Notes: a model not told the origin generated them from the sequence alone. A stretch of 64,000 bases of DNA from Methanobacteriota archaeon (GCA_016214785.1 JACRNV010000028.1:67445-131444); one strand, 5' to 3'; shown: positions 7,995 to 59,915, counted from the stretch's first letter. Numbers and translations are program-made.

Positions 7995-8040
7995 GTGGGG
8001 CTGTCCCATCTCCCTCTGCATATAACTAAAGCGCTTCCAT

Positions 8041-8567: not shown

Positions 8568-8608
8568 ATGGGCTTGCCATATAACCGCTTCTCATTTATA
8601 AAATCGAC

Positions 8609-9445: not shown

Positions 9446-9454
9446 GCAGTACCC

Positions 9455-9838: not shown

Positions 9839-9840
9839 GG

Positions 9841-10467: not shown

Positions 10468-10479
10468 TTATCAACCGTC

Positions 10480-35446: not shown

Positions 35447-35451
35447 CTTCC

Positions 35452-36486
35452 TCACCTCCCCCTCTTGCTGCCGCCGCCCCCGCCCATGGGGCCGTGCCTC
35501 GGCCCTCCTTGGTGGTTGATTTTGACAGTGTCGGAGACGCTGTCCCTCACCTCGCGGCCGGTTATCCTCAGGAAGACGTCCTCCAGGGTGGGTTCGAGGC
35601 TCTTGACCTCCTTGACCTTCCCGCCACATTTCCTGACCGTATCGAGGATGGAATCAAAGGAATCGCCGCCGCTCCTGACTTTGATGCGCGTTTCGCTCTC
35701 CTGGACAATGGAGCTCACTCCGCCGACGGCCTTTATGGCCGATATCATGGCATTATTGAGATTGGGTATGTCGAACTCATGGATGGCGACGTCGGTTCCG
35801 GAGGCCATCTTCTTCAAATTGGCTGGGGTGTCCAGCGCGACTATCTTCCCGTGGTCGATGATGCCTATCCTGTTGCATAGCAGGTCGGCCTCGACCATCA
35901 TGTGGGTTGTGAGTATCATCGTCGTGCGGTTCTCGACGTTTATCTTTCGGATCACCTCGCGTATCTCGGAAGTGGACTGCGGGTCGAGGCCGAGCGTCGG
36001 CTCGTCGAGAAAGAGGATGTTGGGCTTGTTGACCATCGCGCGTATGACGTTTATCCTCTGCTTCATGCCGGTGGAATAGGTCCCTATCTGCTTGTCGGCC
36101 CACTTCTCCATGTGCACGAGGGACAGGATCTCGTCTATCCTCCTGTTCAGCTCGTCTTTGGGGATGTCGTAGAGCCTGCCGAAGAGCTTCAGGTTCTCGC
36201 GCGCCGTCAGCTCGTTGTACATTATCATCTTCTCCGAGACGAGGCCGATGTGCTTCCTGACCTCGGAGTCCTGCCTCACTATGTCGAAGCCGGCAATCGT
36301 CGCCGAGCCGCCCGAGGGCCTGCTCAGGGTGCAGAGCATCCTGATCGTCGTGGACTTTCCCGCACCGTTCGGACCGAGGAAGCCGAATATCTCCCCTTCC
36401 TTGACATCGAAGGATATCTGGTCGACGGCTGTGAAATTGCCGAACTTCTTTGACAGGCTGTTTGTGACAATCGCGCTCTTTGACAT
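35452..36486 (-). CDS. ABC transporter ATP-binding protein (ABC-2/DrrA-type) with Gly-rich C-terminal tail
   Basis: Walker A GPNGAGKST, signature YSTGMKQR, Walker B LFLDEPTLGLD; unusual tail GGPRHGPMGGGGGSKRGR. Confidence 0.9.
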   Translation of the reverse strand: MSKSAIVTNSLSKKFGNFTAVDQISFDVKEGEIFGFLGPNGAGKSTTIRMLCTLSRPSGGSATIAGFDIVRQDSEVRKHIGLVSEKMIMYNELTARENLKLFGRLYDIPKDELNRRIDEILSLVHMEKWADKQIGTYSTGMKQRINVIRAMVNKPNILFLDEPTLGLDPQSTSEIREVIRKINVENRTTMILTTHMMVEADLLCNRIGIIDHGKIVALDTPANLKKMASGTDVAIHEFDIPNLNNAMISAIKAVGGVSSIVQESETRIKVRSGGDSFDSILDTVRKCGGKVKEVKSLEPTLEDVFLRITGREVRDSVSDTVKINHQGGPRHGPMGGGGGSKRGR

Positions 36487-36510
36487 GCACTCACTTCCTG
36501 CACGGCTGGC

Positions 36511-36762
36511 CTAGCCCTTGCGGCCCGGCTTCCCGTTGACCTGCTCCTTGAAGAATTCGATGTGCTTTCCCATCGTCGTAAGCATCTCGTTCAGCGCCTC
36601 CGCCTTCAGGAGCATGATGCCATGCATCGGGCCGGGCATGCTGAGCACGAGGAGCTTGTCTCCCGAGCCTATACTGTGCTTCTTCCTGAGCTTGGCTGGC
36701 AGGACTATCTGCCCGCGCTCGCCGACCGTCGTGCTCCCGAAGAACTCAAGGTCTCCGAACAT
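36511..36762 (-). CDS. AbrB/SpoVT-family DNA-binding protein (swapped-hairpin beta-barrel regulator)
   Basis: VGERGQIVLPAKLRKKHSIGSGDKLLV matches the AbrB/MazE looped-hinge motif; first gene of the ABC operon. Confidence 0.7.
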   Translation of the reverse strand: MFGDLEFFGSTTVGERGQIVLPAKLRKKHSIGSGDKLLVLSMPGPMHGIMLLKAEALNEMLTTMGKHIEFFKEQVNGKPGRKG

Positions 36763-36899
36763 GAACTCACCTTGAGGGTGGGAGAAGGCGTATGATATAT
36801 TAAACCTTTCACTAAAATCATACTATTCATATTTGTATGATGAACGTGTCGTAGCTACCTTATTGATGTACTGGCCAGGTAAAATCATTGGGGGTATAT

Positions 36900-37928
36900 C
36901 TATGTGTTCCCGTTCCCCGCCATGTACCTCGTCCTTCGCCCGTCCGTCTCCATCCGGACGGCCCCGCTGCGCTCCAGGACCTTCAGGTTGTAGCTCGCCG
37001 TCTGCTGGCTGATGCCCAGGATGTCGGCTATGAACTTCTGGGTCGCGCCGTCCACGCCCGTCTGGCGTATGAGGTCGAGTATCTCGAGCTGCATCTCGCT
37101 GAGCTTGATGCCCCCTTCCTGCGGTATCATCACGTTGACGGGGTAGAAGCGCTTGAACGTGCCGTCCCTCCTGGACTTCACGAACCCCTGCATCTCCAGG
37201 GTGCGGAGGTGGTGCGCCAGAGTGCCGTTGTTCAGGCTGAGCGCGAGCCTGATGGCGTTGTAGTGGTTGCCGGGGTTGGCGACGATGAAACCGTATATCT
37301 GGCCGCGAACGAAGTGGTCCAGCACCTCTTCCTTCCTCACCCGCGTATAAAGCGGGAATAGGAGGCGCATGAGGCCGTATTTGCCGACCTCCGTGCCGGC
37401 GATGCCCGAGCCAACGACGGCTGCGGCGACGCCGGCGAGCCACAGGCTGTCGGCCGGTATCTCGGCCGCGGGGGGGAGCACTGTCAGCGAGATGGTCGCC
37501 TGACCGGACGTGTAGTCGGCCTTGGCGGCGTTGACGACGAGCCAGACCTTCCCCTCGCGGTCGACATTGTCCGCGGCGTAGACGAAGCTCGTCTTGCCGT
37601 CGGCGTCCGTGGGCGCCGTAGCCTGGACGTTGCCCGCGCCGAGCAGGTTGACGGTGACCGTCGCCCCCTCGATCGGGATGTTGCGCATGTCCCTGACGAC
37701 GACCTCGACATAGGACGTGGAACCGGAGCCAATGACCTTGAAGTCAGTGTCCGCCCACACGCAGAGGACGGTGTCGTTGCTCGCCGCCATGTCGTAGCGC
37801 ACGTCGCGGAAAGGCGGCCGGGCGGCAGCGGGGCGCACCGACAACGAGAGGAAGATGGCAAAACCGAGGATTGCAAGGGCTAGGATTATGCCGAACCGGC
37901 GAGTGCGATTCGACTCCCGCCATGACAT
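36900..37928 (-). CDS. membrane-anchored winged-helix transcriptional regulator (TM - extracytoplasmic beta-rich domain - TM - C-terminal wHTH)
   Basis: N-terminal TM helix, about 130-aa exported domain with sequons, second hydrophobic segment, C-terminal ArsR-like HTH (QLEILDLIRQTGVDGATQKFIADILGISQQTASYNLKVLERSGAV). Confidence 0.6.
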   Translation of the reverse strand: MSWRESNRTRRFGIILALAILGFAIFLSLSVRPAAARPPFRDVRYDMAASNDTVLCVWADTDFKVIGSGSTSYVEVVVRDMRNIPIEGATVTVNLLGAGNVQATAPTDADGKTSFVYAADNVDREGKVWLVVNAAKADYTSGQATISLTVLPPAAEIPADSLWLAGVAAAVVGSGIAGTEVGKYGLMRLLFPLYTRVRKEEVLDHFVRGQIYGFIVANPGNHYNAIRLALSLNNGTLAHHLRTLEMQGFVKSRRDGTFKRFYPVNVMIPQEGGIKLSEMQLEILDLIRQTGVDGATQKFIADILGISQQTASYNLKVLERSGAVRMETDGRRTRYMAGNGNT

Positions 37929-38086: not shown

Positions 38087-38869
38087 TCAGAAAATTTGTG
38101 ACCATGCCCGGAGAGCCATTGACGCAAGTCCTGCTGGCAATGCAGGGACGTTCTTCATCACAACCGCGCCCAAGCCTATGAACGCATTGTTGCCTACGAC
38201 GACGTAGTCCCTTATCGAGCTGTTCGGGGAAATCCAGACGCCATCACCTATCTTCGCACTCCCGGCGATTATGGTTCCCGCAGTGATGATGCAGTTCTTT
38301 CCGATTGTGACATTGTGCCCGATGTGGCAGTAGTGGTCTATCTTCGTGCACCGCCCGACCCTTGTGTTCCCGAGTGTCCCCCTGTCTATGTTCGTGAACG
38401 GAAAGACCTCCACGTAGTCACCGAGAACCACGCCCCCGTAGTGCGGGAAATTCTCTAACATCCCCTTCTCGTTTTCAATATGCCCGAGTCCCTCATATCC
38501 GATCAGGCAATATGGATAGACAATCACATTCCTCCCTATAGTCACATTGTCGTTTATCAATACGTTCGAATGAATTATCGTGTTGGCCTTTATTTTACAT
38601 TTCCCAATCGAGCAGTTGGGCCCGATATATACGCTCGGGTGTATGTCCGCTCCGTCACTGACCACCGAGGTGGGATGAATACCTCCCCTCTTCACCTCCC
38701 GCGGGAAGCATCTCTTTAATATTCTTAAAAAGGCCAACTGGGGGTTCTCCACGACTACGAATGCCTTTTTAGTAGCGTTTGGGCTTTTAACGCCCGTCTT
38801 TTTATTAACCAGTATCACCGAAGCCTTTGAATTGTTGACGATTTTTGTCGAGTTTTGTATCCTTTCCAT
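38087..38869 (-). CDS. left-handed beta-helix (hexapeptide-repeat) sugar N-acyltransferase, LpxD/PglD-like
   Basis: Tandem hexapeptide repeats (IGPNCSIG, VTIGRNVIV, VTIGKNCIITAGTIIAG, IGDGVWISPNSSI) after an N-terminal nucleotide-sugar-binding-like region. Confidence 0.7.
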   Translation of the reverse strand: MERIQNSTKIVNNSKASVILVNKKTGVKSPNATKKAFVVVENPQLAFLRILKRCFPREVKRGGIHPTSVVSDGADIHPSVYIGPNCSIGKCKIKANTIIHSNVLINDNVTIGRNVIVYPYCLIGYEGLGHIENEKGMLENFPHYGGVVLGDYVEVFPFTNIDRGTLGNTRVGRCTKIDHYCHIGHNVTIGKNCIITAGTIIAGSAKIGDGVWISPNSSIRDYVVVGNNAFIGLGAVVMKNVPALPAGLASMALRAWSQIF

Positions 38870-39000
38870 AGCGCAGAAAGAGATGGCCCCGCTCTTTCCC
38901 TCCCATATCGTAGAAGGGAACGAAAAGGTTGTGTCAGGGCTGCCTATTATCTCGTATCCCTTAATCTTCAGCTCCGCCAGGACTTTTCCTATCCGGTATT

Positions 39001-39783
39001 TTATAACCCATCCCTCCTGATGATGCTTAGCGTCTCGAAGTAGTCGTGCAGCAGTGTCTCCGACATTCGCGACGTATATGCAACGATGGTGTCCACGTAA
39101 TCTCCCCCCCCCTCCAGGAATTGCTCGGGGTGAAGCGATATCTGGACCGGGAATTTTTTTATGCCCTTGATGAATTCATAAGGTTCTTTGCCCCTATACG
39201 GATGCAGGAAGGGATCTATGCGCATTGAATCGCTGAGGTAACGCTCGTCTGAGAAAATCTCCTTCGCGTATGCGTTGAGGTATCCATCAAACATCGGGTA
39301 GTCCCCATGGACGGAGGGATTGTGCAATGCGATAGAGGTTATCGGCGCACCTATGACTCTCTCTAGGATCGCGCATTCGTCCCGGACGGCTTGATCGAGT
39401 CTGGCTTTGGACACATTTCCGTATATCGAGGGATCGAAATGCAGCCCTATCTCGAATCCGTCGCCGGACATCTCCCTCAGCATCCGTCTCAGCCGTGCGG
39501 ACTGCGGATTGTATGTATGGGACGTGGTGAGCACGAAGAATGTCGAGCGGATGCCTAGCTTTTTCTGTATCTTTGTGAATTTATCTGACGGGTAAAGGTC
39601 GAGGTCCACATCCTGCCTGAGGAGGATACACCTTCCATTGTGCTTTTTGCAGTCCCTCAGGGGCACGACTGGCGCGACATCCATGGTGCACCGGAGGAAT
39701 CTTTCGAGTTCGTCGAACGAAAATTTTACCCCCCATGCATCCTTTTGCGGCGTCTTTCTCATCGTTGCACGACCATCCTGCAT
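39001..39783 (-). CDS. putative carbohydrate esterase / polysaccharide deacetylase-like protein
   Basis: Weak NodB-like features (DVDLD, HTY, LHNPSVHGD); sits between the N-acyltransferase and glycosyltransferase genes; assignment uncertain. Confidence 0.35.
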   Translation of the reverse strand: MQDGRATMRKTPQKDAWGVKFSFDELERFLRCTMDVAPVVPLRDCKKHNGRCILLRQDVDLDLYPSDKFTKIQKKLGIRSTFFVLTTSHTYNPQSARLRRMLREMSGDGFEIGLHFDPSIYGNVSKARLDQAVRDECAILERVIGAPITSIALHNPSVHGDYPMFDGYLNAYAKEIFSDERYLSDSMRIDPFLHPYRGKEPYEFIKGIKKFPVQISLHPEQFLEGGGDYVDTIVAYTSRMSETLLHDYFETLSIIRRDGL

Positions 39784-39812
39784 TTCTACAGCCTCCTATG
39801 GACTCAGGATAT

Positions 39813-40931
39813 TTATGGCTTTCTGCATATGGCCATTTTCCCGTAAATCCGCTCGAACTCGCCCATGTTCTTCTCCCAATCGCCTATCCTGAGAGCGAGC
39901 TCCCTGCTCGCCTTTCCGAAACGCTGTCTCGCCTCGGCATCTGCGGCCAGTCCCAGCATCTTCACAGCAAGGTCCCTCGGTTTGTCAGCATCGAATATAT
40001 ACCCATTGACGCCGTTTTGGACAGCCTCCTCTATACCGTGCCTGCTAGCCAAGAGGACTGGTAGGCCAGTGCTCAATGCCTCCATAACACTGGCGCCTAT
40101 CCCTATTCCGGCTTTATCGATGTGCACAGTGTCTAAATATATGTCCGAGCTTGAAAGGTATTTTGGCACCTCGTCGTGAGGAATCTTCCCAGTGAACATC
40201 AGCATGTCTTCTACCCCGGTTTCGGTAGCTAGCGCGTCCAGCCTCTCCTTTTCTGGACCTCCGCCGATTATTACGATCTTCATATCATTTCTCGCAGCCT
40301 TTATATGCGGAATCGATTCGATGAGAGCTGGAATGCCCCATGTGGGGACGAGCGATGCCACCATCGTGACGATGACCCCGTCTTCCCTGCCCAGCAGCTT
40401 GCGCCTAAGGTCATCGGAGCGCGCCGAAGGCGAGAAGCGTCGGGTGTCGACGCCCCATGGCTGGACAAAGGTCTTCTCGGGGGGGCAGCCGAGCTCGATC
40501 AGCCTGGCCTTTCCAGCACAGTCGCCGGTGTGGACGAGGTCTGATCCCCGTATGACATCTTTCGTGATCCCCCCCACGATCGAATCGTCCTTTACCCACG
40601 CAATATCGCTGCCCCAAGCGCTGACGATGAAAGGGCGGGCCCCGGACTTCAATCCCCAGTACCCGTACGAGAAGATGAAATGCGCATGCAAGATATCGGG
40701 CGTCATTTCCCGGATCAGCTTCTTAGATTGCCTTATTCTGATATAGAGATTGACTGCTCTCGCCAGGATATTCGGCTTTCCGATGTTCTCCTTGACAGGG
40801 TGTAAGGCGACCCCCTCGATCTTCGCGGGCTTGTCGGTGATGACGTGCACCTCGTGCCCCCTCTGGGCGAATGACCGGGCCCACCTCTGCAGGTGGATCG
40901 ACTGTGCGTCCCCTATATAGCAGATTCTCAT
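39813..40931 (-). CDS. GT4-family glycosyltransferase (GT-B fold)
   Basis: N-terminal sugar-acceptor domain, C-terminal Glycos_transf_1-like block with E-x7-E-like region (GIEEAVQNGVNGYIFD); start at the ATG 40931. Confidence 0.8.
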   Translation of the reverse strand: MRICYIGDAQSIHLQRWARSFAQRGHEVHVITDKPAKIEGVALHPVKENIGKPNILARAVNLYIRIRQSKKLIREMTPDILHAHFIFSYGYWGLKSGARPFIVSAWGSDIAWVKDDSIVGGITKDVIRGSDLVHTGDCAGKARLIELGCPPEKTFVQPWGVDTRRFSPSARSDDLRRKLLGREDGVIVTMVASLVPTWGIPALIESIPHIKAARNDMKIVIIGGGPEKERLDALATETGVEDMLMFTGKIPHDEVPKYLSSSDIYLDTVHIDKAGIGIGASVMEALSTGLPVLLASRHGIEEAVQNGVNGYIFDADKPRDLAVKMLGLAADAEARQRFGKASRELALRIGDWEKNMGEFERIYGKMAICRKP

Positions 40932-41050
40932 CGTGCGCTCTCCGGCGGTTACGAGTATGCGGGCATGGTATATAAACATCCCCGCCCCACGCTTGACGCA
41001 CCCCCACCTTTCAAATACTAGCTTTCAGATACGCGCACGAGGCGTTCACA

Positions 41051-42160
41051 ATGCCAAAGACCACAGTGTCAGTCATCAAGGCGGACGTCGGCGGATGGGC
41101 CGGCCACTCGACCGTGCACCCCGCGCTCATAGAGGCGGGCAACAAGGTACTCGGCAAGGGGGCGGAGAAGGGCATAATCACCGACTACTACGTCACGCAC
41201 GTCGGCGACGACCTCGAGCTCATCATGTCCCACACTAAAGGCACGGACAACAAAAAGGTCCACGAGCTCGCGTGGAGCGTCTTCGAGGAAGGCACCCGCG
41301 TCGCCAAGGAACTGAAGCTCTACGGCGCGGGGCAGGACATGCTCGCAGACGCCTTCTCCGGCAACGTCAAGGGCCTCGGGCCCGGTGTCGCGGAGATGGA
41401 GTTCACCGAGCGCAAGGGGGAGCCCGTAGTCGTAATAATGATGGACAAGACGGAGCCGGGCGCGTTCAACCTGCCCGTCTTCAGGATGTTCGCCGACCCG
41501 TTCAACACCGCCGGGCTCGTCATCGACCCGACGATGCACGACGGCTTCGTGTTCGAGGTATGGGACATAGAGGAGCACAGGAAGGTCTTCCTCAGGACGC
41601 CCGAGGAAGTCTACGACCTTCTGGCGCTCATAGGCGCGAAGTCGCGGTTCGTCATCAAGAGGGTATTCCCGAAGAAGGGGAAGCTCCCCGAGGACGAGCC
41701 CGCCGCCGTGGTGTCCACCGAGAAGCTCTACCAGATCGCCGGCGAGTACGTGGGCAAGGACGACCCCGTCGGCATAGTCAGGGCGCAGTCCGGCCTCCCG
41801 GCGCTGGGAGAGGTCATCGAGCCGTTCGCGTTCCCGTACCTGGTCTCGGGCTGGATGCGCGGCAGCCACAACGGCCCGCTGATGCCAGTAGGCCTGTGCA
41901 ACGCCAAGTGCTCGCGCTTCGACGGCCCGCCGCGCGCCGTCGCCCTCGGCTTCCAGGTGGCCAATGCGAACCTGGGCCAGCCGCTCGACCTCTTCGACGA
42001 CCCGGCGTACGACGGGGCGCGCAAGCAGGCAACCAAGATCGCGGACTACATGCGCAGGCACGGCCCGTTCGAGCCCCACAGGCTTCCGCTCGCGGACATG
42101 GAGTACACCACCCTCCCGAAGGTCATGGTCAAGCTCAGGGACAGGTTCAAAAAGGTGTAG
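41051..42160 (+). CDS. fbp: fructose-1,6-bisphosphate aldolase/phosphatase (class V FBPase)
   Basis: N-terminus MPKTTVSVIKADVGGWAGHSTVHP is diagnostic of the archaeal bifunctional FBP aldolase/phosphatase family; 369 aa. Confidence 0.9.
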   Translation: MPKTTVSVIKADVGGWAGHSTVHPALIEAGNKVLGKGAEKGIITDYYVTHVGDDLELIMSHTKGTDNKKVHELAWSVFEEGTRVAKELKLYGAGQDMLADAFSGNVKGLGPGVAEMEFTERKGEPVVVIMMDKTEPGAFNLPVFRMFADPFNTAGLVIDPTMHDGFVFEVWDIEEHRKVFLRTPEEVYDLLALIGAKSRFVIKRVFPKKGKLPEDEPAAVVSTEKLYQIAGEYVGKDDPVGIVRAQSGLPALGEVIEPFAFPYLVSGWMRGSHNGPLMPVGLCNAKCSRFDGPPRAVALGFQVANANLGQPLDLFDDPAYDGARKQATKIADYMRRHGPFEPHRLPLADMEYTTLPKVMVKLRDRFKKV

Positions 42161-42161
42161 G

Positions 42162-42830
42162 ATGCGCAGCCCGATTGTGGTCGTGAATTTCAAGACCTAC
42201 CCGGAGGTCTGCGGCGCCAGGGGCTTGGAGATCGCCAGGAAGATAGACGAGGCGATGCGCGAGACCAAAGGCTCCGCGGTCATCGCTCCCCAGCAGACGG
42301 ACCTCGCGCTCATCGCAAGGGAGGCCAAGGTCCCCGTCTTCGCCCAGCACCTGGACAATGCCGTGCAGGGCTCCACCACCGGGTACGTTACACCTGAGGG
42401 AGTGAAGGCCGCCGGCTGCGTCGGGACGCTGCTCAACCATTCCGAGCACAGGATACGCGGCGACGAGCTCGAGCTGATAGTCGAGCGCTGCAGGAAGGCG
42501 GGGCTGAAGACCATCGTCTGCTCGAATACCGTCGCCGTCTGCAAGGCGTGCACGCACTTCGCCCCCGACTTCATTGCCATCGAGCCCCCGGAGCTCATCG
42601 GCGGCGACCTCTCGGTCACGAGCGCGGACCCGAAGATAGTGGAGAGCGCCGTGGAGGCCGTGAAGGGCATAGATCCGAAGGTCAAAGTCCTGTGCGGCGC
42701 CGGGGTGAAGACCGGGACGGACGTGAAGAAGGCCATAGAACTGGGCGCAGACGGCGTGCTGCTGGCGTCGGGCATCGTTAAGGCCAAGGACCCGAAGGCG
42801 GTCATGATCGAGATGCTGAGGGCGCTGTAA
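42162..42830 (+). CDS. tpiA: triosephosphate isomerase (archaeal short type)
   Basis: VVVNFKTY...NHSEHR...AIEPPELIGG catalytic motifs; 222 aa; ATG 2 nt after the fbp stop. Confidence 0.9.
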   Translation: MRSPIVVVNFKTYPEVCGARGLEIARKIDEAMRETKGSAVIAPQQTDLALIAREAKVPVFAQHLDNAVQGSTTGYVTPEGVKAAGCVGTLLNHSEHRIRGDELELIVERCRKAGLKTIVCSNTVAVCKACTHFAPDFIAIEPPELIGGDLSVTSADPKIVESAVEAVKGIDPKVKVLCGAGVKTGTDVKKAIELGADGVLLASGIVKAKDPKAVMIEMLRAL

Positions 42831-43086: not shown

Positions 43087-43344
43087 TTATTTCATCTTTC
43101 TCTCAATTATAGATGCGAGGCCGGAGATCGTTAAGAAATCCGTTTTCCTGAAGTCTCCATCGGAGAAGCGGATGCGGAACTCCTGCTCGACGTCGGAGAT
43201 GAGCGCGATGAACGCGAACGAGTCGAGCAAGCCGCGCTCTATGTAGTTTGTGTCGGGTTTGATATTATCCTGGTCGATCTTGGCATGTCCGGCGAACCAG
43301 GCCAGCAGCCAGCTCCTTGGGTCAGCTTTCATGTTCGGTCTCAT
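43087..43344 (-). CDS. acyl/peptidyl carrier protein (phosphopantetheine-attachment domain)
   Basis: About 80 aa with GLLDSFAFIALISDVEQEF, i.e. (D/G)xDS phosphopantetheinylation site plus helix; overlaps the 3' end of the ligase gene. Confidence 0.6.
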   Translation of the reverse strand: MRPNMKADPRSWLLAWFAGHAKIDQDNIKPDTNYIERGLLDSFAFIALISDVEQEFRIRFSDGDFRKTDFLTISGLASIIERKMK

Positions 43345-44929
43345 CCTCCTTCGACCTCGCTGGGAGTTCCGGAAGCGCCCCTTCCAGCAACAGGCGCCTC
43401 AGCTCCTTCTTGTTGATTTTCCCGGTGACGCTCCGGGGCAGCTCGTCCGATGAGAAAATGCTTTCCGGTATCTTGAACGGCGCAAGGTGAGACTTGCAGT
43501 GCTTTAACAGCTCTTCCTTGTCGAGGCCAGCGCCGCCGTTGACGACCGCCACCACCTGCTCGCCCGCATGCCTGTCCGGCATGCCGACGACGGCTACCGC
43601 ACTGATGCCGGGGTGCCTCGCTATGACATCCTCGATCTCCTTCGGGCTGATGTTTATCCCTCCCCTGATGATCAAATCCTTCTTCCGGTCGGTGACGAAG
43701 AGGTAGCCGTCCCGATCGAGGTACCCCATGTCCCCGGTCCTGAACCATCCGTCCCGAGTGAACGCCCCCTTTTCGTCCATTTTGTAATACCCTTTCATCA
43801 AATACGACGAGCGCACCACGATCTCCCCGGTCTCGCATGCCCCGCGCTCGTGGCCCGCGTCGTCCAGGATTCGGACGGAGCAGCCGGGCACGACCTTTCC
43901 GACCCCCCTGGGCTCTCCGATGCCAGGATGGTTCGTGGAGATGAAGAAGGTCTCGGATAGCCCGTAGTTCTCGTAGAGCTCGACATGGTATCGCTCCTCG
44001 AACGACTTCTTCAATTGCTCGGGAAGAGGCGCGGTGCCTATGAGGACCTTTTCAACATGCTCCCTCGAATATTCGCTGCCGACCTTGGAACGGTCTATCG
44101 ACAGCAGTATCGAGGCGATGGAGGGGACCAGCCAAATGGCGTTGATTCCGTGCTTGATTGCCATGTCCCAGAAACTGATGGCCACGCGCGGGCTGAAGGT
44201 CTCCTGCAGGACTATGCTCCCCTCGGCGATGAAGGGGATTAGCATCAGGTTGTAGAAGCCGCCGAGGTATGCGAGGTCGAGGTAGGCGAAGAAGCGGTGC
44301 CGGGACTCCAGCTGGAGAAGGCCGGCGAACATCTTGCCGTTGCCGATGATCTCCTTGTACCTTATCTGCACCCCCTTGGGCCGGTTGGTCGTGCCGGACG
44401 TGAACACTATTATTATCGTGTCGCCGTCTTCGACGATGCCGAGCGGGCCATCCGGCAGCGGGGCGTGTGCGGAGACAGCCCTCAGCCAATCACCGGCCTT
44501 CGGGCTCTCCGCCTCACTGCCAGGGATGATGGTGACGATGCCGAGGCCCAAAGACCGTAGCTGGCGCGCGGCCTCTTCGAATCTCGAGGAGATGAAGAGG
44601 CATTTCGCCTCCGCGTTTGATATGATGTACTTCATCTCGTCCGTATGCAGCCGCTGGTTGACAGGCACCGGGATCACGCCCGTGTGCATGCATGCGAAGT
44701 AGATGACGATGTACTCGATGCAGTTCGGCATGATGATGGAGATTCTGTCCCCCTTCCGGAGGCCCAGTTCGCGCAGCATCCCGGCGGCCCGAAGCGAGAG
44801 GTCCTCCAGCTCGCCGTACGTGAATTCCCTCCTCCCGAGCGTATCCACTATGAAGACCCGGCTCCTGTTCCTTTCGAAGACACTCTTTATGGCCAGTACC
44901 ATCTCGCGGGACGCATCATGGGGGTTCAC
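43322..44929 (-). CDS. AMP-dependent synthetase/ligase (acyl-CoA or acyl-carrier-protein ligase, ANL superfamily)
   Basis: AMP-binding motif FTSGTTNRPKGV, YGLSET, hinge DRKKDLIIRGGINISPKEIE, C-terminal catalytic K (VTGKINK). Confidence 0.85.
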   Translation of the reverse strand: MNPHDASREMVLAIKSVFERNRSRVFIVDTLGRREFTYGELEDLSLRAAGMLRELGLRKGDRISIIMPNCIEYIVIYFACMHTGVIPVPVNQRLHTDEMKYIISNAEAKCLFISSRFEEAARQLRSLGLGIVTIIPGSEAESPKAGDWLRAVSAHAPLPDGPLGIVEDGDTIIIVFTSGTTNRPKGVQIRYKEIIGNGKMFAGLLQLESRHRFFAYLDLAYLGGFYNLMLIPFIAEGSIVLQETFSPRVAISFWDMAIKHGINAIWLVPSIASILLSIDRSKVGSEYSREHVEKVLIGTAPLPEQLKKSFEERYHVELYENYGLSETFFISTNHPGIGEPRGVGKVVPGCSVRILDDAGHERGACETGEIVVRSSYLMKGYYKMDEKGAFTRDGWFRTGDMGYLDRDGYLFVTDRKKDLIIRGGINISPKEIEDVIARHPGISAVAVVGMPDRHAGEQVVAVVNGGAGLDKEELLKHCKSHLAPFKIPESIFSSDELPRSVTGKINKKELRRLLLEGALPELPARSKEDETEHES

Positions 44930-45908
44930 AAAGCCTCCCCTCCTCCATGACCGTCAGGCCGTCCACCACGACGGTGGGGTTTCTGATGACCAGGTCCAGG
45001 TGGAAGGCGACATCGTTCTCCCCCCCTATAGTCGCATTGGAGCCGAAGCCGAAATGGACCGTGCCCATGCATCCCTCGTCCTCCAGCATGCGGCCGCACA
45101 GCTTGGCCTGCGGATTGAGGCCGATGCCGAACTCCGCGAGGATCAGCCTTCTCTCGTCGCCTCCGGCCCGGAGAAGCGTGTCGAGGGCCCGTCCCTGCTC
45201 CGTCCCCGTGTCCACTGTGCGGATATTCCCCGCTTTCACTTCCACCCTTATGGCCTCGCTCACGAGCCCGATCTCCCTGCAGGGAATGCTTCCATCCACG
45301 ACGATGGTGCCGCGGCTCTTCTCCTCCAGCGGGGCGATGTTGGTCTCGATGTCGGGCGGCGAGCCAAGCATCCCCGGCTCGGAAGTGTATCCAGGGCAGA
45401 AATTCGCCGTGCGGCCCGCTATGTTCAATTCGAGGTCTGTGCCCATCAAGGTGCGCACCCGCACGGTCTTCCCATTGTCCAGGATATCCCTGAGCTTGCC
45501 AGCGACGCCGGAGAAAGAGGCGTAGTCCACCGTCAGGGCCGGGCTCGCGAGCTGCTCTAGGCTGTAATCGGGGAGGCTGAGGTACCGGGCGCCACGGTCG
45601 GTGGCCCGCTTCCGGGCCTTTGTGTGCGCCATCGAGAACGCTGTCAAACAGAATATTACATCCGCCTTTAGCATGGCGTCGGCGACCTCCCTGGGGGGCT
45701 CCTGGCCATGCATCTTCGCGCCCCCCACTGCTTTGAACTGCACTTTGGAGCTCGTGGCCTTCGCGGCCTCTATGACATATCGGGCTACGTCTTCCGTGGA
45801 GGCGTCGGATATGACAAGAAGCGTCTCGCCATCCCTGGCCCGCCCGCACTCCCTCACGAGGACTGCAGCCCCTTTCTTAAACGCCTTTGTGTCGATGCCC
45901 ATGTCCAA
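44916..45908 (-). CDS. M29 aminopeptidase-like protein (short paralog of AmpS)
   Basis: Blocks LAEFGIGLNPQAK and MGTVHFGFGSNA parallel LGEVAIGTNPG / TIHMALGNG of the 495-1598 aminopeptidase; 330 aa. Confidence 0.55.
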   Translation of the reverse strand: MDMGIDTKAFKKGAAVLVRECGRARDGETLLVISDASTEDVARYVIEAAKATSSKVQFKAVGGAKMHGQEPPREVADAMLKADVIFCLTAFSMAHTKARKRATDRGARYLSLPDYSLEQLASPALTVDYASFSGVAGKLRDILDNGKTVRVRTLMGTDLELNIAGRTANFCPGYTSEPGMLGSPPDIETNIAPLEEKSRGTIVVDGSIPCREIGLVSEAIRVEVKAGNIRTVDTGTEQGRALDTLLRAGGDERRLILAEFGIGLNPQAKLCGRMLEDEGCMGTVHFGFGSNATIGGENDVAFHLDLVIRNPTVVVDGLTVMEEGRLCEPP

Positions 45909-45935
45909 CCCTCGCGACGATAATTGATAGGATAG

Positions 45936-46670
45936 TTAAACCTTGCGCCCGCCGCGCTCGATCTCCTTCAAAAACGCTCTGAACTTGTCGCGGAGCTCCA
46001 CCGGCAGAAGCTCGGTGTCGAAGTACTTCTTCAGGCAGACCGTGTCGTAAGTGCTCCACTTCTTCGTGTCGACGCAGTGGTGCCAGATGTCCTCCTGGAG
46101 CTCGATGAAGTCTAGCTTCCTGAGGAACTCCCTGTTGATGTTCTCGGAGGAGATGATGACAACACCACCGTCATCGCAGATGGCGATGGCGTTTTCGTAC
46201 TTCTTCTTCCATTCACTGACTATCTTAGTGGCGAGGGGCTTTTCGTGCTGCTCGTTGAAGTAGCCGATGGGTGATACCCCCTTGCACCAGACGGGGAAGT
46301 TCTCCTTTATCAGCCGGTGGGCGTCCCTCATGTACCCGTTCACTACCACGGCGCTGACGTCCTTGTATAGGATAAGGTATTTCGTAACCAGCTCACCGAA
46401 GGCCGCGCGCTTGCCGCAATTGTACGACTCCACGACGACGATGTCCCCCTCTTTCACGCCCTCTATCTGCTCGTGGATGGCCCAGTTGCTGGCATCGTAT
46501 CCATATGCGAGGAAGACGCGCCCCACCCTGAAATGCCCCTTGTTTATCGGTGCGATGTCGGGGATCGCGCCGGTCTTCCCGAGGCAGTCCGCCACCTCGG
46601 TCGTCGATATCTTGTTCTTGCTTACCTTCTTGATTATCTCCCTCATTACCGCATTGCGCTTTTTATCCAT
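45936..46670 (-). CDS. RraA-family protein (RraA / 4-hydroxy-4-methyl-2-oxoglutarate aldolase-like fold)
   Basis: Pattern GDIVVVESYNCGKRAAFGELVTKY...AVVVNGYMRDAHRL resembles the RraA/MenG-like swivelling beta/beta/alpha fold. Confidence 0.55.
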   Translation of the reverse strand: MDKKRNAVMREIIKKVSKNKISTTEVADCLGKTGAIPDIAPINKGHFRVGRVFLAYGYDASNWAIHEQIEGVKEGDIVVVESYNCGKRAAFGELVTKYLILYKDVSAVVVNGYMRDAHRLIKENFPVWCKGVSPIGYFNEQHEKPLATKIVSEWKKKYENAIAICDDGGVVIISSENINREFLRKLDFIELQEDIWHHCVDTKKWSTYDTVCLKKYFDTELLPVELRDKFRAFLKEIERGGRKV

Positions 46671-46674
46671 GGAT

Positions 46675-47058
46675 TCACCCGACCCTTTGGGCTATCGCCA
46701 GAGCGACCGCGTAGTTAAATGTATGGGAAAGGCTCACCTTCACGACCAGGTCTTTCCCCGCACCCTTTGCGAGCTGGACTCTCGGGGCGCCCCTCTCGCT
46801 CAGTATCTCTATCACTCCATGGGCGAGCGCTTGGCCCGTGAGATCGCCCACGGCCTTTATAACGGCCTCCTTCCCGGCGAACCTGGCGGCGAGGTGCTCC
46901 GCCCGGCGCTCCTTCGAGTAACAGTAGTCGAGCTCCTTGCTCGTGAAGACCTTGGCCAGGAATGCATCGTCGCGCTCCCGGTCCAGGCAGTAGAATCTGC
47001 TCACTTCTTCAATATCGATGCCTATCCCCAAGCTCCCCAGATTCGCTGGTGTGTGCAT
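46675..47058 (-). CDS. acpS: holo-[acyl-carrier-protein] synthase (4'-phosphopantetheinyl transferase, AcpS type)
   Basis: GIGIDIEEVSRF ... HLAARFAGKEAVIKA are the AcpS Mg-binding and catalytic motifs; 127 aa. Confidence 0.75.
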   Translation of the reverse strand: MHTPANLGSLGIGIDIEEVSRFYCLDRERDDAFLAKVFTSKELDYCYSKERRAEHLAARFAGKEAVIKAVGDLTGQALAHGVIEILSERGAPRVQLAKGAGKDLVVKVSLSHTFNYAVALAIAQRVG

Positions 47059-49908: not shown

Positions 49909-51105
49909 ATGGCTGACGAAGGCGAAAAGAAAAAAGGAGGCTTCTTCTCGTTCGGCAGGAAGAAGGGGGGCGCCCCCGAGAAGCTGTCGCGCGCGGAGGT
50001 CAAGAAGCGCCTGGTCGAGCGACGGGCGACGCTTGACGAGCGCGAGCAGATGCTCGCCCTATTGGAGACGCAGCTCGACGGGCAGAACCGAGCCAACGAG
50101 CGCAGGGACAGCGAGCTCAACGAGAAGAGGGAGGCGCTAGACGGCCGCGCGAAGGAGCTGGACGAGCGAGCCTCGTACCTCGACGAGAAGGAGAAGGGCA
50201 TGGCCGCCGAGCGCGCGGAGTTCGCCTCCATCCAGGAGCAGTTCAAGCAGAAGGTGCAGGCTATACGGGAGCTGAAGGCCGAGGCCGAGCGCCAGTCCGC
50301 GGAGGCCAAGGCGGCGATGGACGACCTGGAGAGCCGCAAGGCGGAGATAGACGCCAAGGCCGCGGCCCTGGACGCCAGGAGCGCGGAGCTGGAATCGCTC
50401 GCGGCGGACCTGGACAGGAAGTCCGACTTGCTCGACAAGAGGAAGGCGGCCATCGAGAGCCAGGCGGGGGACTTCGACCTGAAGATGGAAGCCCTGACCA
50501 ACCGCGAGAACGGCCTCACGGAGGAGAGGACGCGCCTGGAAGCCATCCAGAGGGAGCTGGAGGAGGCTGAAAAGGCCCTAGAGGCGCGCCGCTCGGAGGT
50601 CGGCCAGATGCAGGAGCAGCTCCAGGCCAAAGCCCAGGCCATCAGGGAGATCAAGGACGAGGTCGAGCGCAGGCGCGCGGAGAACCAGGACGAGGCCAGG
50701 GACCTCGAGAAGATGAGGTCGGATCTCGACGAGCTGAAGGATCAGCTGGACGCCCGGGACAAGGGGCTCGACGAGAAGGCCGCGAAGATGATGGAGAAGG
50801 AGGGGTTCCTCGCGGAGCTGGAGGAGAAGGTCGGGCTATGGCGGAAGCGCCTGGAGTCGAAGGAGAACGAGCTGGCGGCCAGGCAGGCCGCGCTGACGAA
50901 CAGGGAGCTGGAGATCAAGAGCAAGGAGGCCGAGATGGACGGCGTCAAGCACAACCTCGCGCAGAAGGTCGAGGGCCTCAAGGACATCGAGACCAGGGTC
51001 CTCCAGAGGAAGCGCGACGTCGACAAGATAGAGCTCAAGCTTATAGAGAAGGAGACGGAGCTCTTCGACCGCGAGCAGGTCGTGACGAGAAGGGAAGGAA
51101 AATAG
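49909..51105 (+). CDS. coiled-coil protein, paralog of the 4010-6430 repeat region; N-terminal basic amphipathic segment
   Basis: 398 aa; N-terminus KKKGGFFSFGRKKGGAPEKL then continuous charged heptad repeats with the same register and composition as 4010-6430. Confidence 0.65.
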   Translation: MADEGEKKKGGFFSFGRKKGGAPEKLSRAEVKKRLVERRATLDEREQMLALLETQLDGQNRANERRDSELNEKREALDGRAKELDERASYLDEKEKGMAAERAEFASIQEQFKQKVQAIRELKAEAERQSAEAKAAMDDLESRKAEIDAKAAALDARSAELESLAADLDRKSDLLDKRKAAIESQAGDFDLKMEALTNRENGLTEERTRLEAIQRELEEAEKALEARRSEVGQMQEQLQAKAQAIREIKDEVERRRAENQDEARDLEKMRSDLDELKDQLDARDKGLDEKAAKMMEKEGFLAELEEKVGLWRKRLESKENELAARQAALTNRELEIKSKEAEMDGVKHNLAQKVEGLKDIETRVLQRKRDVDKIELKLIEKETELFDREQVVTRREGK

Positions 51106-51152
51106 CCGGACGGGACTCAAGAGATTTATGCAGGACAAATGGAGCAAAAAGC

Positions 51153-51974
51153 ATGAATAGTCCTAATTATGTTAAGCCAAACTTTCCGGCCAATGCGTTC
51201 AAAGGTACCGCCTTATACTATAGTCGGTATCGCATCCCCTATCCTGATGCCCTTATTGAAGATCTCATCAGTAGAGTTGGGATAAAAGATGGTGATAGAC
51301 TTCTGGATCTGGCATCCGGGCCAGGACGCCTTGCAATCCCGCTCTCAGCCTCCTTCTCTGAGGTTGTGGCGAATGACCTGGAGCCAGAGATGATTGATGA
51401 GGGAATGAAAGAAGCGGACAAGCAAGGAGCCACCAATATCCGATGGGTCATTGGAAAATCTGAGGAATTGAAGGAAGAACCAGTGTCATTTAAATTGATT
51501 ACGATAGGGGAAGCGTTTCATCGGCTTGATCAATTGGTTGTGTCAAGGCAAGCACTTAGGCTGCTTGTTCCGGGTGGCTGCCTGGCCGTAATTGGCTGTT
51601 ACGGAATTACTGAAGGAACGGAACCGTGGCAACGCATAGTGGCGGAAACGGTTCAGAAATGGACAGAACAGGCCTCCCCCATACGAAAGATGGAGCCAAA
51701 GCCGGGCAGCGGTCCTAAGCACAACAGGTTAGTTCTTCAGGATGCGGGATTCGTGAATATCGAAGCCTACTCTTTTACGAAAGAACACACATGGACTGTC
51801 GAATCAATCCTTGGTTACCTATTCTCGACTTCGCAATGTTCTAAGAACGCGCTGGGCGCATACAGTGAGGATTTTGCGCTTGATTTACGAAACCAGCTTC
51901 TGAATTTCGATTCTAAGGAACAATACAGAGCAAATATGGATTGTGGCTATACAATCGGAAGGAAGCCGAAATAA
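51153..51974 (+). CDS. class I SAM-dependent methyltransferase
   Basis: SAM-binding motif I LLDLASGPGRLAIPL and acidic motif II (VVANDLEPEM); lower-GC gene. Confidence 0.65.
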   Translation: MNSPNYVKPNFPANAFKGTALYYSRYRIPYPDALIEDLISRVGIKDGDRLLDLASGPGRLAIPLSASFSEVVANDLEPEMIDEGMKEADKQGATNIRWVIGKSEELKEEPVSFKLITIGEAFHRLDQLVVSRQALRLLVPGGCLAVIGCYGITEGTEPWQRIVAETVQKWTEQASPIRKMEPKPGSGPKHNRLVLQDAGFVNIEAYSFTKEHTWTVESILGYLFSTSQCSKNALGAYSEDFALDLRNQLLNFDSKEQYRANMDCGYTIGRKPK

Positions 51975-54575: not shown

Positions 54576-55934
54576 ATGAAGCGCAAGATCGTTGTCGTTG
54601 GAATGGGCTATGTCGGCATCCCGGCCGCGGCTCTCTTCGCCGACGTCCCGGGGTTCGACGTCACTGGCGTGCAGCGCAGATCGAAGCGCTCCGGATGGAA
54701 GATTGACTGGCTCAACAAGGGCAAGAACCCCATAGGCGGGGACGAGCCCGGCCTCTCCGAGCTCATAGCCCGCGTCGTCAGGAAGAAGTCATTCAGGGTC
54801 TCCGAGAAAATCTCGGTCGTAAAGGACGCGGAAGCCATCCTCATAGACGTCCAGACGCCGACCGAGGCCGACAGGAAGCCGCGCTACGAGTCGCTCAAGG
54901 AGGTGAGCGCCGAGATCGGCAGGCACCTCCGCAAGGGGACGCTTGTAGTAATCGAGTCAACGGTCGCGCCGGGCACGACCGAGTACATCGTCAGGCCCAT
55001 TCTTGAGAGAGCCTCCAAGATGAAGGCCGGCAGGGACTTCTTCCTCGCGTTCTCCTACGAGCGCGTGATGGTCGGGCGCCTCATCAACAACATCGTCAAC
55101 CTGCCGAGGATAGTTGGCGGCATAAATGCAGAGAGCACGAGGCGCGCCGTCGAGCTCTACCGCCACGTCGTCAAGTCCTCGCTCCATCCTACCGACGCGC
55201 TGACCGCCGAGGTCGCCAAGGTCGTCGAGAACACGTACAGGGACGTGAACATCGCCTTCGCGAACGAGGTCGCGCTGATATGCGAGAGCCTCGGCGTGAA
55301 CGTCTACGACGTGCGCGAGTTCGTCAACACGCTCCCGAACGACCCGAGGAACCCGGTGTCCAACCCGGTCAGGAACATGCACTTCCCCGGCGCTGGCGTG
55401 GGCGGCCACTGCCTCCCCAAGGACCCGTGGCTGCTGAAGTACGGCGTGGACACCTACGGCAAGTTCAAGGTCGAGCCCGAGATAATCATCGGCAGCAGGC
55501 TCCTGAACGACATGATGCCGTCTCACGTCGCCGACCTGCTGGAAGCGGCCCTGAAAGAGCATGGCAGGGAGCTCATCAGCGCGAAGATAGCGATACTGGG
55601 CGTGGCCTTCCTGGAGAACTCCGACGACACGCGCAACACGCCTTCGGCCACGCTGTACGAGGAGCTGAAAAGGCGCGGGGCCAAGCCGGTGATGCACGAC
55701 CCGATAGTGCGCGAGTACGAGCTGCCGTTCACAAAGGACCTGGAAGGGACGCTGCGCGGCGCGGACGCTGTTATACTCTCGACCAAGCACAAGGAGTACC
55801 TCAAGCTAGACCTGAGGAAGCTGGCCAAGAAGCTCAGGACGCCAATCCTCATCGACGGCAGGAACGCCTTTAGCGCTGAGAAGGCGAAGAAGGCCGGGCT
55901 TACATACAGGGGCATAGGGAAGGGAAGGCGTTGA
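54576..55934 (+). CDS. nucleotide-sugar dehydrogenase (UDP-N-acetyl-D-mannosamine / UDP-glucose 6-dehydrogenase family)
   Basis: N-terminal Rossmann GMGYVGIP, catalytic Cys region GAGVGGHCLPKDP, UDP-binding C-terminal domain. Confidence 0.85.
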   Translation: MKRKIVVVGMGYVGIPAAALFADVPGFDVTGVQRRSKRSGWKIDWLNKGKNPIGGDEPGLSELIARVVRKKSFRVSEKISVVKDAEAILIDVQTPTEADRKPRYESLKEVSAEIGRHLRKGTLVVIESTVAPGTTEYIVRPILERASKMKAGRDFFLAFSYERVMVGRLINNIVNLPRIVGGINAESTRRAVELYRHVVKSSLHPTDALTAEVAKVVENTYRDVNIAFANEVALICESLGVNVYDVREFVNTLPNDPRNPVSNPVRNMHFPGAGVGGHCLPKDPWLLKYGVDTYGKFKVEPEIIIGSRLLNDMMPSHVADLLEAALKEHGRELISAKIAILGVAFLENSDDTRNTPSATLYEELKRRGAKPVMHDPIVREYELPFTKDLEGTLRGADAVILSTKHKEYLKLDLRKLAKKLRTPILIDGRNAFSAEKAKKAGLTYRGIGKGRR

Positions 55935-59134: not shown

Positions 59135-59630
59135 CCTCTTTACCCCCTTACCCTCCTCCGCATTAGTATTCTTTACTTGAGAGGGTATAGATAAATAGTG
59201 ATGCGAGTAGAAATAAATTCCTAACAATTTGTAGCATGTTGAAAAATGAGTGCTCCCCACCATAAATGGTGGGGAGCACTCATTAACGAGAAAATACTTG
59301 AAAAGGGTCATTTGTTGGTTATGTGAAATCAATTATTTTTTAACATTATCTATCCTCTGAATGAGTAAATTTTGCTTCTATTTGAGGATTCAGAATTCAA
59401 TTCCAAATTTTTTGTTTATTTATCAATCTTTTCGGAGGTGGCAAGTAGAGCCTCAGTCGTAAGGTTTCTTGGGCTATAGGGAAAAGCCGTAATAGTCGAC
59501 ATATAAAAGGTAAGAATATCGGAATAATACTTGCAATTGGGGTCCCTCCCATAAAAATTTCCGCGAGTGCGATTGGCATTGCGCAAGCATCAGCCTGGCT
59601 TCAAGGAAACATGCGTCTGATAGCAGTAAC

Positions 59631-59870: not shown

Positions 59871-59915
59871 TGACCGAAAGAATTAAACAAACAAAATCGC
59901 ATATGCGATAGGAAG

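Follow-up and report, generated by a model that had tools for sequence, protein, structure and literature searches.

Positions 43087–47058 of a 64,000-nucleotide stretch from a Methanobacteriota archaeon (GCA_016214785.1, JACRNV010000028.1:67445–131444; the whole of this stretch is hereafter called the window) hold five genes on the minus strand, which we read, with fair though far from full confidence, as a cassette that primes its own acyl carrier and furnishes an amino sugar of a surface glycan with an unusual N-acyl group. The cassette unites a phosphopantetheinyl transferase (AcpS), an adenylating ligase and a carrier protein with two putative acid-forming enzymes, and the functional unit probably extends to three genes at 38087–40979 that encode a GT4 glycosyltransferase, a deacetylase-like protein and an LpxD-like acyltransferase. 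This reading builds on domains, conserved residues and gene associations observed in the window and in related loci, from which the activities, the acceptor and the link between cassette and trio would follow.

A predicted self-contained carrier-loading cassette

All five open reading frames (ORFs) of the cassette are present, co-directional and tightly packed, as the preliminary description of this DNA had claimed. The first gene encodes the AcpS-type 4'-phosphopantetheinyl transferase (46675–47058, 127 aa) and is followed, after a gap of 4 bp, by the gene of an RraA-like protein with the aldolase/oxaloacetate-decarboxylase fold (45936–46670, 244 aa). A gap of 27–33 bp leads to the gene of a short metalloenzyme of the M29/NicX fold (44916–45908), which has 330 aa or, from the ATG at 45902 that is probably its start in line with homologs and the NCBI record, 328 aa. 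It overlaps by 14 bp the gene of an adenylating ligase of the ANL superfamily (43322–44929, 535 aa), the end of which is overlapped in turn by the start of the carrier gene (43087–43344, 85 aa), also noted earlier; the overlap amounts to 23 bp, or to 11 bp if the carrier begins at the ATG at 43332, the start we favor as giving an 81-aa protein in line with homolog starts. Profiles above curated cut-offs bear out the domain calls for four of the five proteins, namely AcpS, the RraA-like protein, the ANL ligase and the carrier. The gene order is not a chance arrangement, because it recurs whole in one related locus (L091) and in part in three others (L001, L103 and L114), which are described below.

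In profile searches the AcpS-like protein, of single-domain size, exceeds the cut-offs of Pfam ACPS (58.5 bits, cut-off 25), of TIGR00516 acpS (65.6 bits, cut-off 59.8) and of TIGR00556 (79.8 bits, cut-off 45.35), and the carrier exceeds that of Pfam PP-binding (30.1 bits, cut-off 20.8); the two assignments on which the preliminary description had made its reading depend are both sound. The attachment serine, in the motif GLLDSF, is invariant in the 11 cassette carriers that were aligned. The best NCBIfam model for the carrier is AmcB, which at 36 bits remains below its cut-off of 80, followed by DltC models in second and fourth place (26 bits, cut-off 68, and 22 bits, cut-off 52), and the general acyl carrier protein (ACP) model, acyl_carrier TIGR00517, gives 17 bits (cut-off 70). 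We rejected an ACP of fatty-acid synthase as a candidate: the carrier scores far under the AcpP cut-offs, and no Fab genes occur among the annotated neighbors.

The ligase matches Pfam AMP-binding with 238.5 bits and AMP-binding_C with 57 bits, and both the P-loop (FTSGTTNRPKG) and the C-terminal GK motif (in SVTGKINKK) can be read in its translation. Among solved structures FadD13 comes nearest (217 bits), ahead of two oxalate-CoA ligases (212 and 204 bits) and of malonyl-CoA synthetase (198 bits). It stays under every NCBIfam cut-off, the best model being the long-chain-fatty-acid-CoA ligase PRK06187 (392 bits, cut-off 476), with 275 bits against the malonyl-CoA synthase model (cut-off 558) and 243 bits against MenE, the o-succinylbenzoate-CoA ligase (cut-off 330); the 25 best NCBIfam models listed are all of acyl- or dicarboxylate-CoA ligase types, and DltA is not among them. 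That AcpS, ligase and carrier form a self-contained loading unit, activating an acid for some product, is a reading of the preliminary description that our analysis upholds.

Relatives of the module in bacterial glycan clusters

Relatives were collected in a one-genome-per-species scan with the M29-like protein, which returned the best 80 of 130 confirmed matches, and the partner genes around them were counted by targeted tblastn and hidden Markov model (HMM) searches, with ligases counted within 8 kb. All of these best 80 of the 130 matches are bacterial and come from many phyla; homologs at 50–57% identity are numerous, and the named ones belong to the bacterial Omnitrophota, Kaiserbacteria, Babeliales, Elarobacter and Alphaproteobacteria. 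Among 40 bacterial loci with an M29-like protein that shares 43% or more identity with that of the window, 34 hold an ANL ligase, 29 a carrier-like ORF, 28 a class-I aminotransferase, 20 an N-acyltransferase (AAC(3)-like or LpxD-like), 17 a methyltransferase and 14 a DUF4910 protein, compared with 6, 6, 18, 5, 3 and 5, respectively, of the 42 loci below 43% identity. The ligase of the closer group mostly lies directly downstream of the M29-like gene, and two of the six exceptions are lost to a contig end. Pairing with ligase and carrier is specific to the close M29-like subfamily, because the distant relatives keep other partners, pairing with other pyridoxal-phosphate-dependent enzymes and a GntR regulator.

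The surroundings of the module are glycan clusters, with NeuB/CTP-transferase fusions, PMT_2 and GT2 genes in L001, L002 and L090, flagellin genes in L004, and rmlD and PIG-L in L091. The ligases of L001, L090 and L091 are 50–52% identical to that of the window. Locus L091 repeats the order of the window in full, AcpS, RraA-like, M29-like, ANL ligase and ACP, at identities of 38, 63, 55, 52 and 43%, respectively, and continues with a methyltransferase, a weak GNAT-like protein and a PIG-L deacetylase. It is probably a second archaeal instance of the five-gene set, because its flanking genes have as their best matches archaeal RqcH, a Nop2p-type methylase, a tryptophanyl-tRNA synthetase model and HerA. 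Locus L001 has the order RraA-like, M29-like, ANL ligase and ACP, with an AcpS domain fused to DUF4910, and in L103 and L114 AcpS lies directly upstream of the RraA-like gene. The fusion protein of L001 (3620–5290) joins a DUF4910/DUF2172/HTH_47 protein of the CA_C2195 family to an ACPS phosphopantetheinyl-transferase domain, which ties this family to carrier-protein chemistry.

Two further observations concern the partners of the ligase. In four bacterial loci a single ORF of 880–970 aa, placed between the LpxD-like and M29-like genes, apparently encodes both the ANL ligase and the class-I aminotransferase (L015 7253–9985, L018 7239–9965, L022 6199–8844 and L035 7069–9972), and this apparent fusion hints that both act on the same intermediate. 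A conserved protein of ~258 aa without a Pfam match, its N-terminus glyoxalase/VOC-like by eye, follows the ligase in L002 (10575–11354, before the methyltransferase) and in L090 (12549–13322, before the aminotransferase).

Clusters of a related kind have been described. A neighborhood analysis of the DUF4910 protein CA_C2195 from Clostridium acetobutylicum linked ACP, AAC(3)-like 'aminosugar N-acetyltransferases', DUF4910 and NeuB (PMC4000134), and the flagellin glycosylation islands of Aeromonas carry ACP and AMP-dependent synthetase genes (PMC7874193); M29-like and RraA-like members are not described in either paper. The bacterial relatives of the window's module lie in such ACP/AAC(3)-like/DUF4910 neighborhoods, together with Antibiotic_NAT, DUF4910, methyltransferase and NeuB genes, and these biochemically uncharacterized systems, like the one we propose, would pass an acyl group assembled on a carrier to an amino sugar. 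The window differs from them in having no NAT, DUF4910, methyltransferase or NeuB gene of this kind, and holds an LpxD-like transferase instead. Of the products considered in the preliminary description, glycan decoration is the one favored by the neighbors of the relatives, and D-alanylation of the Dlt type finds no support.

The probable acceptor-side trio

The acceptor side of the system would be provided by three further genes of the minus strand, at distances from the carrier gene that run from 2.1 kb (GT4) to about 4 kb (the LpxD-like gene). The GT4 glycosyltransferase (39813–40979, 388 aa) matches Pfam Glycos_transf_1 with 108.5 bits and Glyco_trans_4_2 with 84.6 bits; it lies upstream of the other two genes, and this position suggests that it may belong to the system.

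The second gene encodes a divergent CE4 (NodB)-like putative de-N-acetylase (39001–39783, 260 aa) that scores 19.9 bits with Pfam Polysacc_deac_1, under the cut-off of 23.1. A single-sequence AlphaFold model was unusable (pLDDT 40), and the family profile was compared with the PDB instead; it matches only CE4 polysaccharide, chitin and peptidoglycan deacetylases, and these weakly (best E 1.8e-4). The RxDxD, GxH, H, SDS and HP positions are invariant in the family.

The third gene encodes an N-acyltransferase with a left-handed beta-helix (LbH) of the LpxD type (38087–39004; 260 aa from the annotated start, an ATG at 38869). It reaches 197.3 bits with the NCBIfam LpxD subfamily model NF002060 (cut-off 207) and 180.6 bits with TIGR01853 (cut-off 242.5); among solved structures LpxD ranks first (1e-26) and LpxA next, and its HIGHNV motif aligns with MIAHNV of LpxD. 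Upstream of the annotated ATG the frame remains open, with homology to full-length relatives, as far as about 39004 and contains no ATG, GTG or TTG. An ATA at 39004–39002, which overlaps the TAA stop of the upstream gene (39003–39001), gives a protein of 305 aa in which the N-terminal domain of LpxD (PF04613) is recognized with 34.9 bits (cut-off 30.8) alongside Hexapep with 98.7 bits. The full-length protein probably comprises these 305 aa from the non-canonical ATA, and the 5' end points either to translationally coupled initiation at a non-canonical codon or to a start codon changed by mutation.

Homologs of the LbH protein connect it to the carrier module. They head operons of the order LbH, ligase/aminotransferase, M29-like and ACP in L015, L018, L022 and L035, and the order in L037 is deacetylase-like, LbH, M29-like, ANL ligase, ACP and aminotransferase. 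No AAC(3)-like gene was seen in any of these five loci, because of which the LpxD-like and AAC(3)-like transferases look like alternatives to each other. One homolog (P0293, L095 9001–10218) has a PP-binding domain at its C-terminus (25.3 bits, cut-off 20.8). On either side of its gene are those of a PIG-L deacetylase and an ANL ligase, an arrangement that amounts to a compact unit for deacetylation, loading and re-acylation. CE4-like homologs stand directly upstream of the LbH gene in L018, L022, L037 and L093; the last of these holds the closest LbH homolog (62% identity), preceded by a CE4-like homolog (E 3e-11) and, ~0.7 kb further upstream, by a GT4 gene. Two small ORFs on the opposite strand lie between GT4 and CE4-like genes in L093, the gene order of which is otherwise that of the window.

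Directly downstream of the LbH gene the minus strand encodes a regulator-like protein with several helix-turn-helix domains and immunoglobulin-like domains (36900–37928) and an ABC-2 type transporter (ATPase 35452–36486, permease 34226–35629). The G+C content at third codon positions (GC3) in this region (34226–37928) is 0.80–0.83, near that of the cassette; the genes could export the product or be unrelated. Two plus-strand genes at 8–12 kb from the cassette, for a protein of the UDP-glucose/GDP-mannose dehydrogenase family (54576–55934) and an S-adenosylmethionine-dependent methyltransferase (50838–51974), could serve the same glycan pathway; nothing links them to the cassette.

The putative acid-forming enzymes

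The M29-like protein covers only positions 196–392 of the Pfam Peptidase_M29 profile, with 20.6 bits (cut-off 27), and falls short of the ~400 aa of a full two-domain M29 peptidase. The window also encodes a full-length M29 aminopeptidase (474–1598, plus strand; 374 aa, 311 bits), with which the M29-like protein aligns at an hhalign probability of 98.3; alignment and predicted structure agree that the earlier label 'truncated M29 paralog' is apt. The AlphaFold model (pLDDT 94) is closest in Foldseek to NicX (7cn3/7cup; TM 0.81–0.83, E 1e-24, about 20% identity), the M29 aminopeptidases PepS, AmpS and AmpT following at TM ~0.65. A profile search of solved structures likewise leads to NicX (E 3e-16), and the precomputed Pfam label is PF26233 NicX.

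Five residues, E188, E259, H285, H303 and D305, are invariant in 18 M29-like homologs. Of these, E188, E259, H303 and D305 correspond in PepS to E253, E319, H381 and D383, respectively, and all five, H285 included, match conserved residues of the window's own M29 in the hhalign alignment. The M29 metal ligands we take to be E253, E319, H348, H381 and D383 in PepS/AmpS numbering; the probable equivalence of H285 with H348 rests on this assumed list and on the hhalign alignment. For NicX we presume a mononuclear iron site formed by His265, Ser302, His318 and Asp320. Opposite His265 and Ser302 the M29-like protein has Glu259 and Gly287, so that the H-x-D pair alone is common to both. We expect a site of the two-metal hydrolase type, because the M29 Glu/Glu/His/His/Asp pattern is kept and the His and Ser positions of NicX are changed. 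A NicX-type dioxygenase was rejected as a candidate: the metal-ligand positions differ, and the module occurs in metagenome-assembled genomes labeled Omnitrophota, Thermodesulfobacteriota and Maridesulfovibrio, groups that are largely anaerobic. Overall, the protein resembles the 2,5-dihydroxypyridine 5,6-dioxygenase NicX of Pseudomonas putida in fold and size, whereas NicX goes with nicotinate degradation and the M29-like protein with a ligase and a carrier; to PepS, AmpS and AmpT its fold is a looser match, and it retains their metal-ligand pattern. A tblastn search of a plasmid collection found only distant relatives, at no more than 35% identity (haloarchaeal 'aminopeptidase' genes).

The RraA-like protein matches the Pfam RraA-like family with 77.2 bits (cut-off 24.5), and its homologs are 58–70% identical. 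Among solved structures it comes closest to 5x15 and to the HMG/CHA aldolase 3noj; in alignment with the latter, its Arg-Asp pair falls on R123 and D124 and an acidic residue on D102. Scores with the LigK and aldolase models TIGR02798 (52.6 bits, cut-off 304.5) and NF006731 (59 bits, cut-off 179) are not at the equivalog level of LigK/PcmE. Past the Pfam domain the protein has a strongly conserved C-terminal extension of ~55 aa (within 45936–46130) with many invariant residues, such as EDIW and KKW, for which no alignment to solved RraA or aldolase structures was found. It thus has the fold, the Arg-Asp pair and the acidic residue in common with LigK (3noj), an HMG/CHA aldolase-oxaloacetate decarboxylase, and differs from it in the extension, in the low equivalog scores and in its context, glycan synthesis as opposed to aromatic degradation. 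Plasmids searched by tblastn gave only distant relatives at up to 27% identity (LigK-type aldolases).

Relatives of this protein also occur in a second arrangement. In metagenome loci of at least 5 kb, an ATP-grasp ligase lies within 8 kb of the RraA-like gene in 44 of 54 cases, Amidohydro_2 accompanies it in 28, NeuB in 23 and a DegT aminotransferase in 21, and just a few of the 54 have the M29-like/ANL form. The same RraA/ATP-grasp arrangement is found in Methanosarcina siciliae, beside flippase and DegT/epimerase genes. This sister module combines Amidohydro_2, a methyltransferase, the RraA-like protein and the ATP-grasp ligase. Glycan clusters with NeuB and DegT commonly contain it (L086 and L087, M. 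siciliae C2J and a second genome, CP009506, at 7514–10847; L088; L089; and many of L096–L175), one of its hosts, M. siciliae, being a cultured methanogen, and we found no paper on it. LigI and LigJ, which work alongside LigK in protocatechuate degradation, we take to belong to the Amidohydro_2 family. Because the RraA-like subfamily sits in amino-sugar and nonulosonic-acid clusters, we infer that its members make an acid that is ligated in glycan synthesis, either directly by the ATP-grasp enzyme or by way of an ANL ligase and a carrier. The preliminary description had cast the M29-like and RraA-like proteins as tailoring or hydrolytic enzymes; they probably make or trim the acid and do not tailor the product.

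Origin and genomic setting

The genes flanking the cassette and trio encode an FBP aldolase/phosphatase (FBPase_3), triosephosphate isomerase (TIM), PurP (DUF1246/DUF1297), a cupin-type phosphoglucose isomerase (PGI) and a PRC-barrel protein, a set that we take to fit an archaeal host. GC3 is 0.87–0.92 in the genes for FBPase, TIM, PurP, the PRC-barrel protein, PGI, the true M29 and the UDP-sugar dehydrogenase, 0.73–0.82 in the five cassette genes and 0.63–0.68 in the GT4, CE4-like and LbH genes. Because GC3 in the cassette and the trio lies under that of the housekeeping neighbors and the relatives are mostly bacterial, horizontal acquisition is suggested, probably from bacteria and possibly in two events. 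This would agree with published statements that nearly all archaea lack ACP and ACP synthase, the exceptions being of bacterial origin (PMC3533463; bioRxiv 10.1101/2024.07.05.601840). The earlier view of the cluster as chromosomal, not clearly mobile, holds for its location between FBPase/TIM and purP, whereas GC3 and relatives speak for acquisition from outside. Rfam and tRNA scans found no RNA genes in the window.

Elsewhere in the window, the segment 58001–62000 has a GC content of ~0.445, compared with 0.59 for the window, and its ORFs at 59474–60007 and 59916–60872 match no Pfam family; flanked by a PKD/beta-propeller protein (57080–59332) and a TPR protein (62032–62529), it may be a foreign island.

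Discussion

From these data the following sequence of events can be proposed. AcpS would turn the 81-aa apo-carrier into its holo form, and the RraA-like enzyme, with its metal-dependent pyruvate-aldolase/oxaloacetate-decarboxylase fold, would together with the M29-like enzyme make or trim a short polar acid; a guess would be a 2-oxo- or hydroxy-dicarboxylic acid of the 2-oxoglutarate or 4-hydroxy-4-methyl-2-oxoglutarate (HMG) type. The ANL ligase would adenylate this acid and load it onto the carrier, a step to which its domains, the gene overlaps and the conserved pairing point. The bacterial operons and the one fusion protein suggest that the CE4-like deacetylase frees the amine of a UDP-amino sugar, to which the LpxD-like N-acyltransferase would move the acyl group from the carrier, and GT4 would install the sugar. 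The relatives of the ligase, the AmcB match of the carrier and the ligase/aminotransferase fusions let us lean, weakly, towards a short oxo- or amino-dicarboxylic acid; one of the 2-oxoglutarate or HMG type in particular is improbable, with a one-in-five chance at the very most.

Several points weigh against this proposal. The full-length LbH gene has no canonical start, and the cassette and the trio are separated by the oppositely oriented FBPase and TIM genes (41051–42830); because these intervene and the GC3 values differ, the two groups may have been acquired independently and do not have to form one system. The 64 kb of genome in the window hold no NeuB, aminotransferase, methyltransferase, AAC(3)-like or DUF4910 gene resembling those of the bacterial modules. 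The cues to the acid are weak, as the relatives of the ligase include FadD13 and the AmcB match lies far under its cut-off. The part of the M29-like enzyme is conjectural, and a limited literature search found no characterized close homolog of either the M29-like or the RraA-like subfamily.

Some of these points lend substance to the view that the cassette makes a small metabolite, free or in any case non-glycan, the acid undergoing chemistry while tethered to the carrier and being then set free or handed to an acceptor other than a sugar, and that the GT4, deacetylase-like and LbH genes are unrelated neighbors, which we regard as unlikely while granting it a real chance. The five genes are self-contained, stand two housekeeping genes away from the trio and differ from it in GC3. 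An ANL ligase and a lone carrier also start metabolite pathways: in AmcH/AmcB and Cfa5/Cfa1, an ANL 2-oxoglutarate:ACP ligase and a carrier start the synthesis of cispentacin and coronafacic acid, respectively (PMC10698177). As proposed for the window, a standalone ligase there loads a small acid, in that case an oxo-dicarboxylic one, directly onto a small standalone carrier, and the window's carrier finds its best NCBIfam model in AmcB. At less than half the cut-off the carrier is not AmcB, however, and ketosynthase/chain-length-factor partners were not found. Among the Pfam-annotated ORFs flanking the cassette there are no ketosynthase, condensation or thioesterase domains, the neighbors of the close M29-like/ligase/ACP relatives are, in the loci examined, mostly glycan-cluster genes, and five bacterial loci have LpxD-like homologs in one operon with the core, all of which argues against this view.

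The LbH protein also invites comparison with lipid A synthesis, in which LpxC deacetylates a UDP-GlcNAc (N-acetylglucosamine) derivative that LpxD then N-acylates from acyl-ACP. The window has in common with this pathway the N-terminal domain of LpxD type, the hexapeptide helix, the HIGHNV/MIAHNV correspondence and a putative deacetylase gene directly before the LbH gene, and the homolog fused to a PP-binding domain supports a dependence of the LbH enzyme on a carrier protein. It differs in that its deacetylase is CE4-like and not LpxC, in a private carrier fed by an ANL ligase and not by fatty-acid synthesis, and in the archaeal host; apart from the LpxD-like gene, no lipid A genes were seen among the annotated neighbors. 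One could suppose that the ligase is a fatty acyl-ACP synthetase and that the LpxD-like enzyme N-acylates a UDP-glucosamine derivative on the way to a lipid-A-like glycolipid or lipid anchor. PRK06187 as the best NCBIfam model and FadD13 as the best solved relative of the ligase would fit, as would the kinship of the LbH protein with LpxD and LpxA, both users of 3-hydroxyacyl-ACP, and the deacetylase that precedes it as LpxC precedes LpxD. We judge this quite unlikely, at about one chance in ten: the RraA-like aldolase and the M29-like hydrolase have no obvious part in fatty-acid activation, the bacterial core travels with aminotransferases and methyltransferases, which points to a small polar acid, FadD13 scores barely above the oxalate- and malonate-CoA ligases, and LpxA, LpxB and LpxK were not seen among the annotated neighbors.

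A Dlt-like system, in which the ligase would charge the carrier with an amino acid, for instance D-alanine, for the esterification or amidation of a surface polymer, was tried and rejected as very improbable. DltA and DltC are, like their counterparts here, a standalone ligase and a carrier of ~80 aa, Dlt too serves surface modification, and DltC models come second and fourth for the carrier. These matches, however, lie far under their cut-offs, the ligase is of a different type, with no DltA among its 25 best listed models, and DltD and the MBOAT protein DltB were seen neither among the annotated neighbors nor in the annotated related loci. Least of all do we believe in a decaying, non-functional remnant of a transferred bacterial island, for which the foreign-looking composition, the absence from the window of the bacterial partners (aminotransferase, methyltransferase, AAC(3)-like) and the lost canonical start codon of the LbH gene might be cited, since the five ORFs are intact with coupled starts and stops, keep their invariant catalytic residues and recur as the same minimal set in L091.

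We return therefore to carrier-dependent N-acylation of a surface-glycan amino sugar. In its most detailed form, with a pyruvate-aldol-derived acid from the RraA-like and M29-like enzymes, an ANL-loaded carrier and LpxD-like transfer to a de-N-acetylated UDP-amino sugar in an archaeon, the proposal is tentative, and we would give it about one chance in four. Its known part is the carrier-protein-dependent acylation of amino sugars; what is new is the uncharacterized acid-forming pair and the unusual host. The cassette points to a large bacterial module of M29-like enzyme, ANL ligase and carrier, for which no characterization was found in the literature, and both this core module and the RraA/ATP-grasp sister module occur in nonulosonic-acid and flagellin-glycosylation clusters across many phyla.

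The compact five-gene set with its own AcpS lends itself to in vitro reconstitution, by which acid and acceptor could be identified directly, and the chemistry, if new, would raise the significance of the finding. We found no account in the literature of how the many odd N-acyl groups of bacterial glycans arise. O-antigens and flagellin glycans are known to bear N-acyl groups of the branched hydroxy/methyl pyroglutamoyl or glutamyl type (see the list in PMC10609480), and Leg5(N-methyl-glutam-4-yl)7Ac is cited in bioRxiv 10.1101/2020.06.03.131540; if our reading is true, the module could be the missing route to groups of this type. It would also be the first function for two widespread, uncharacterized enzyme subfamilies of bacterial nonulosonic-acid and flagellin-glycan clusters. 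For the archaeal host, the locus is a clean case of an apparently imported carrier system that is unconnected with fatty-acid synthesis and appears to serve surface-glycan decoration, which, if true, would make it the first described case in Archaea of a glycan modification that depends on an ACP.

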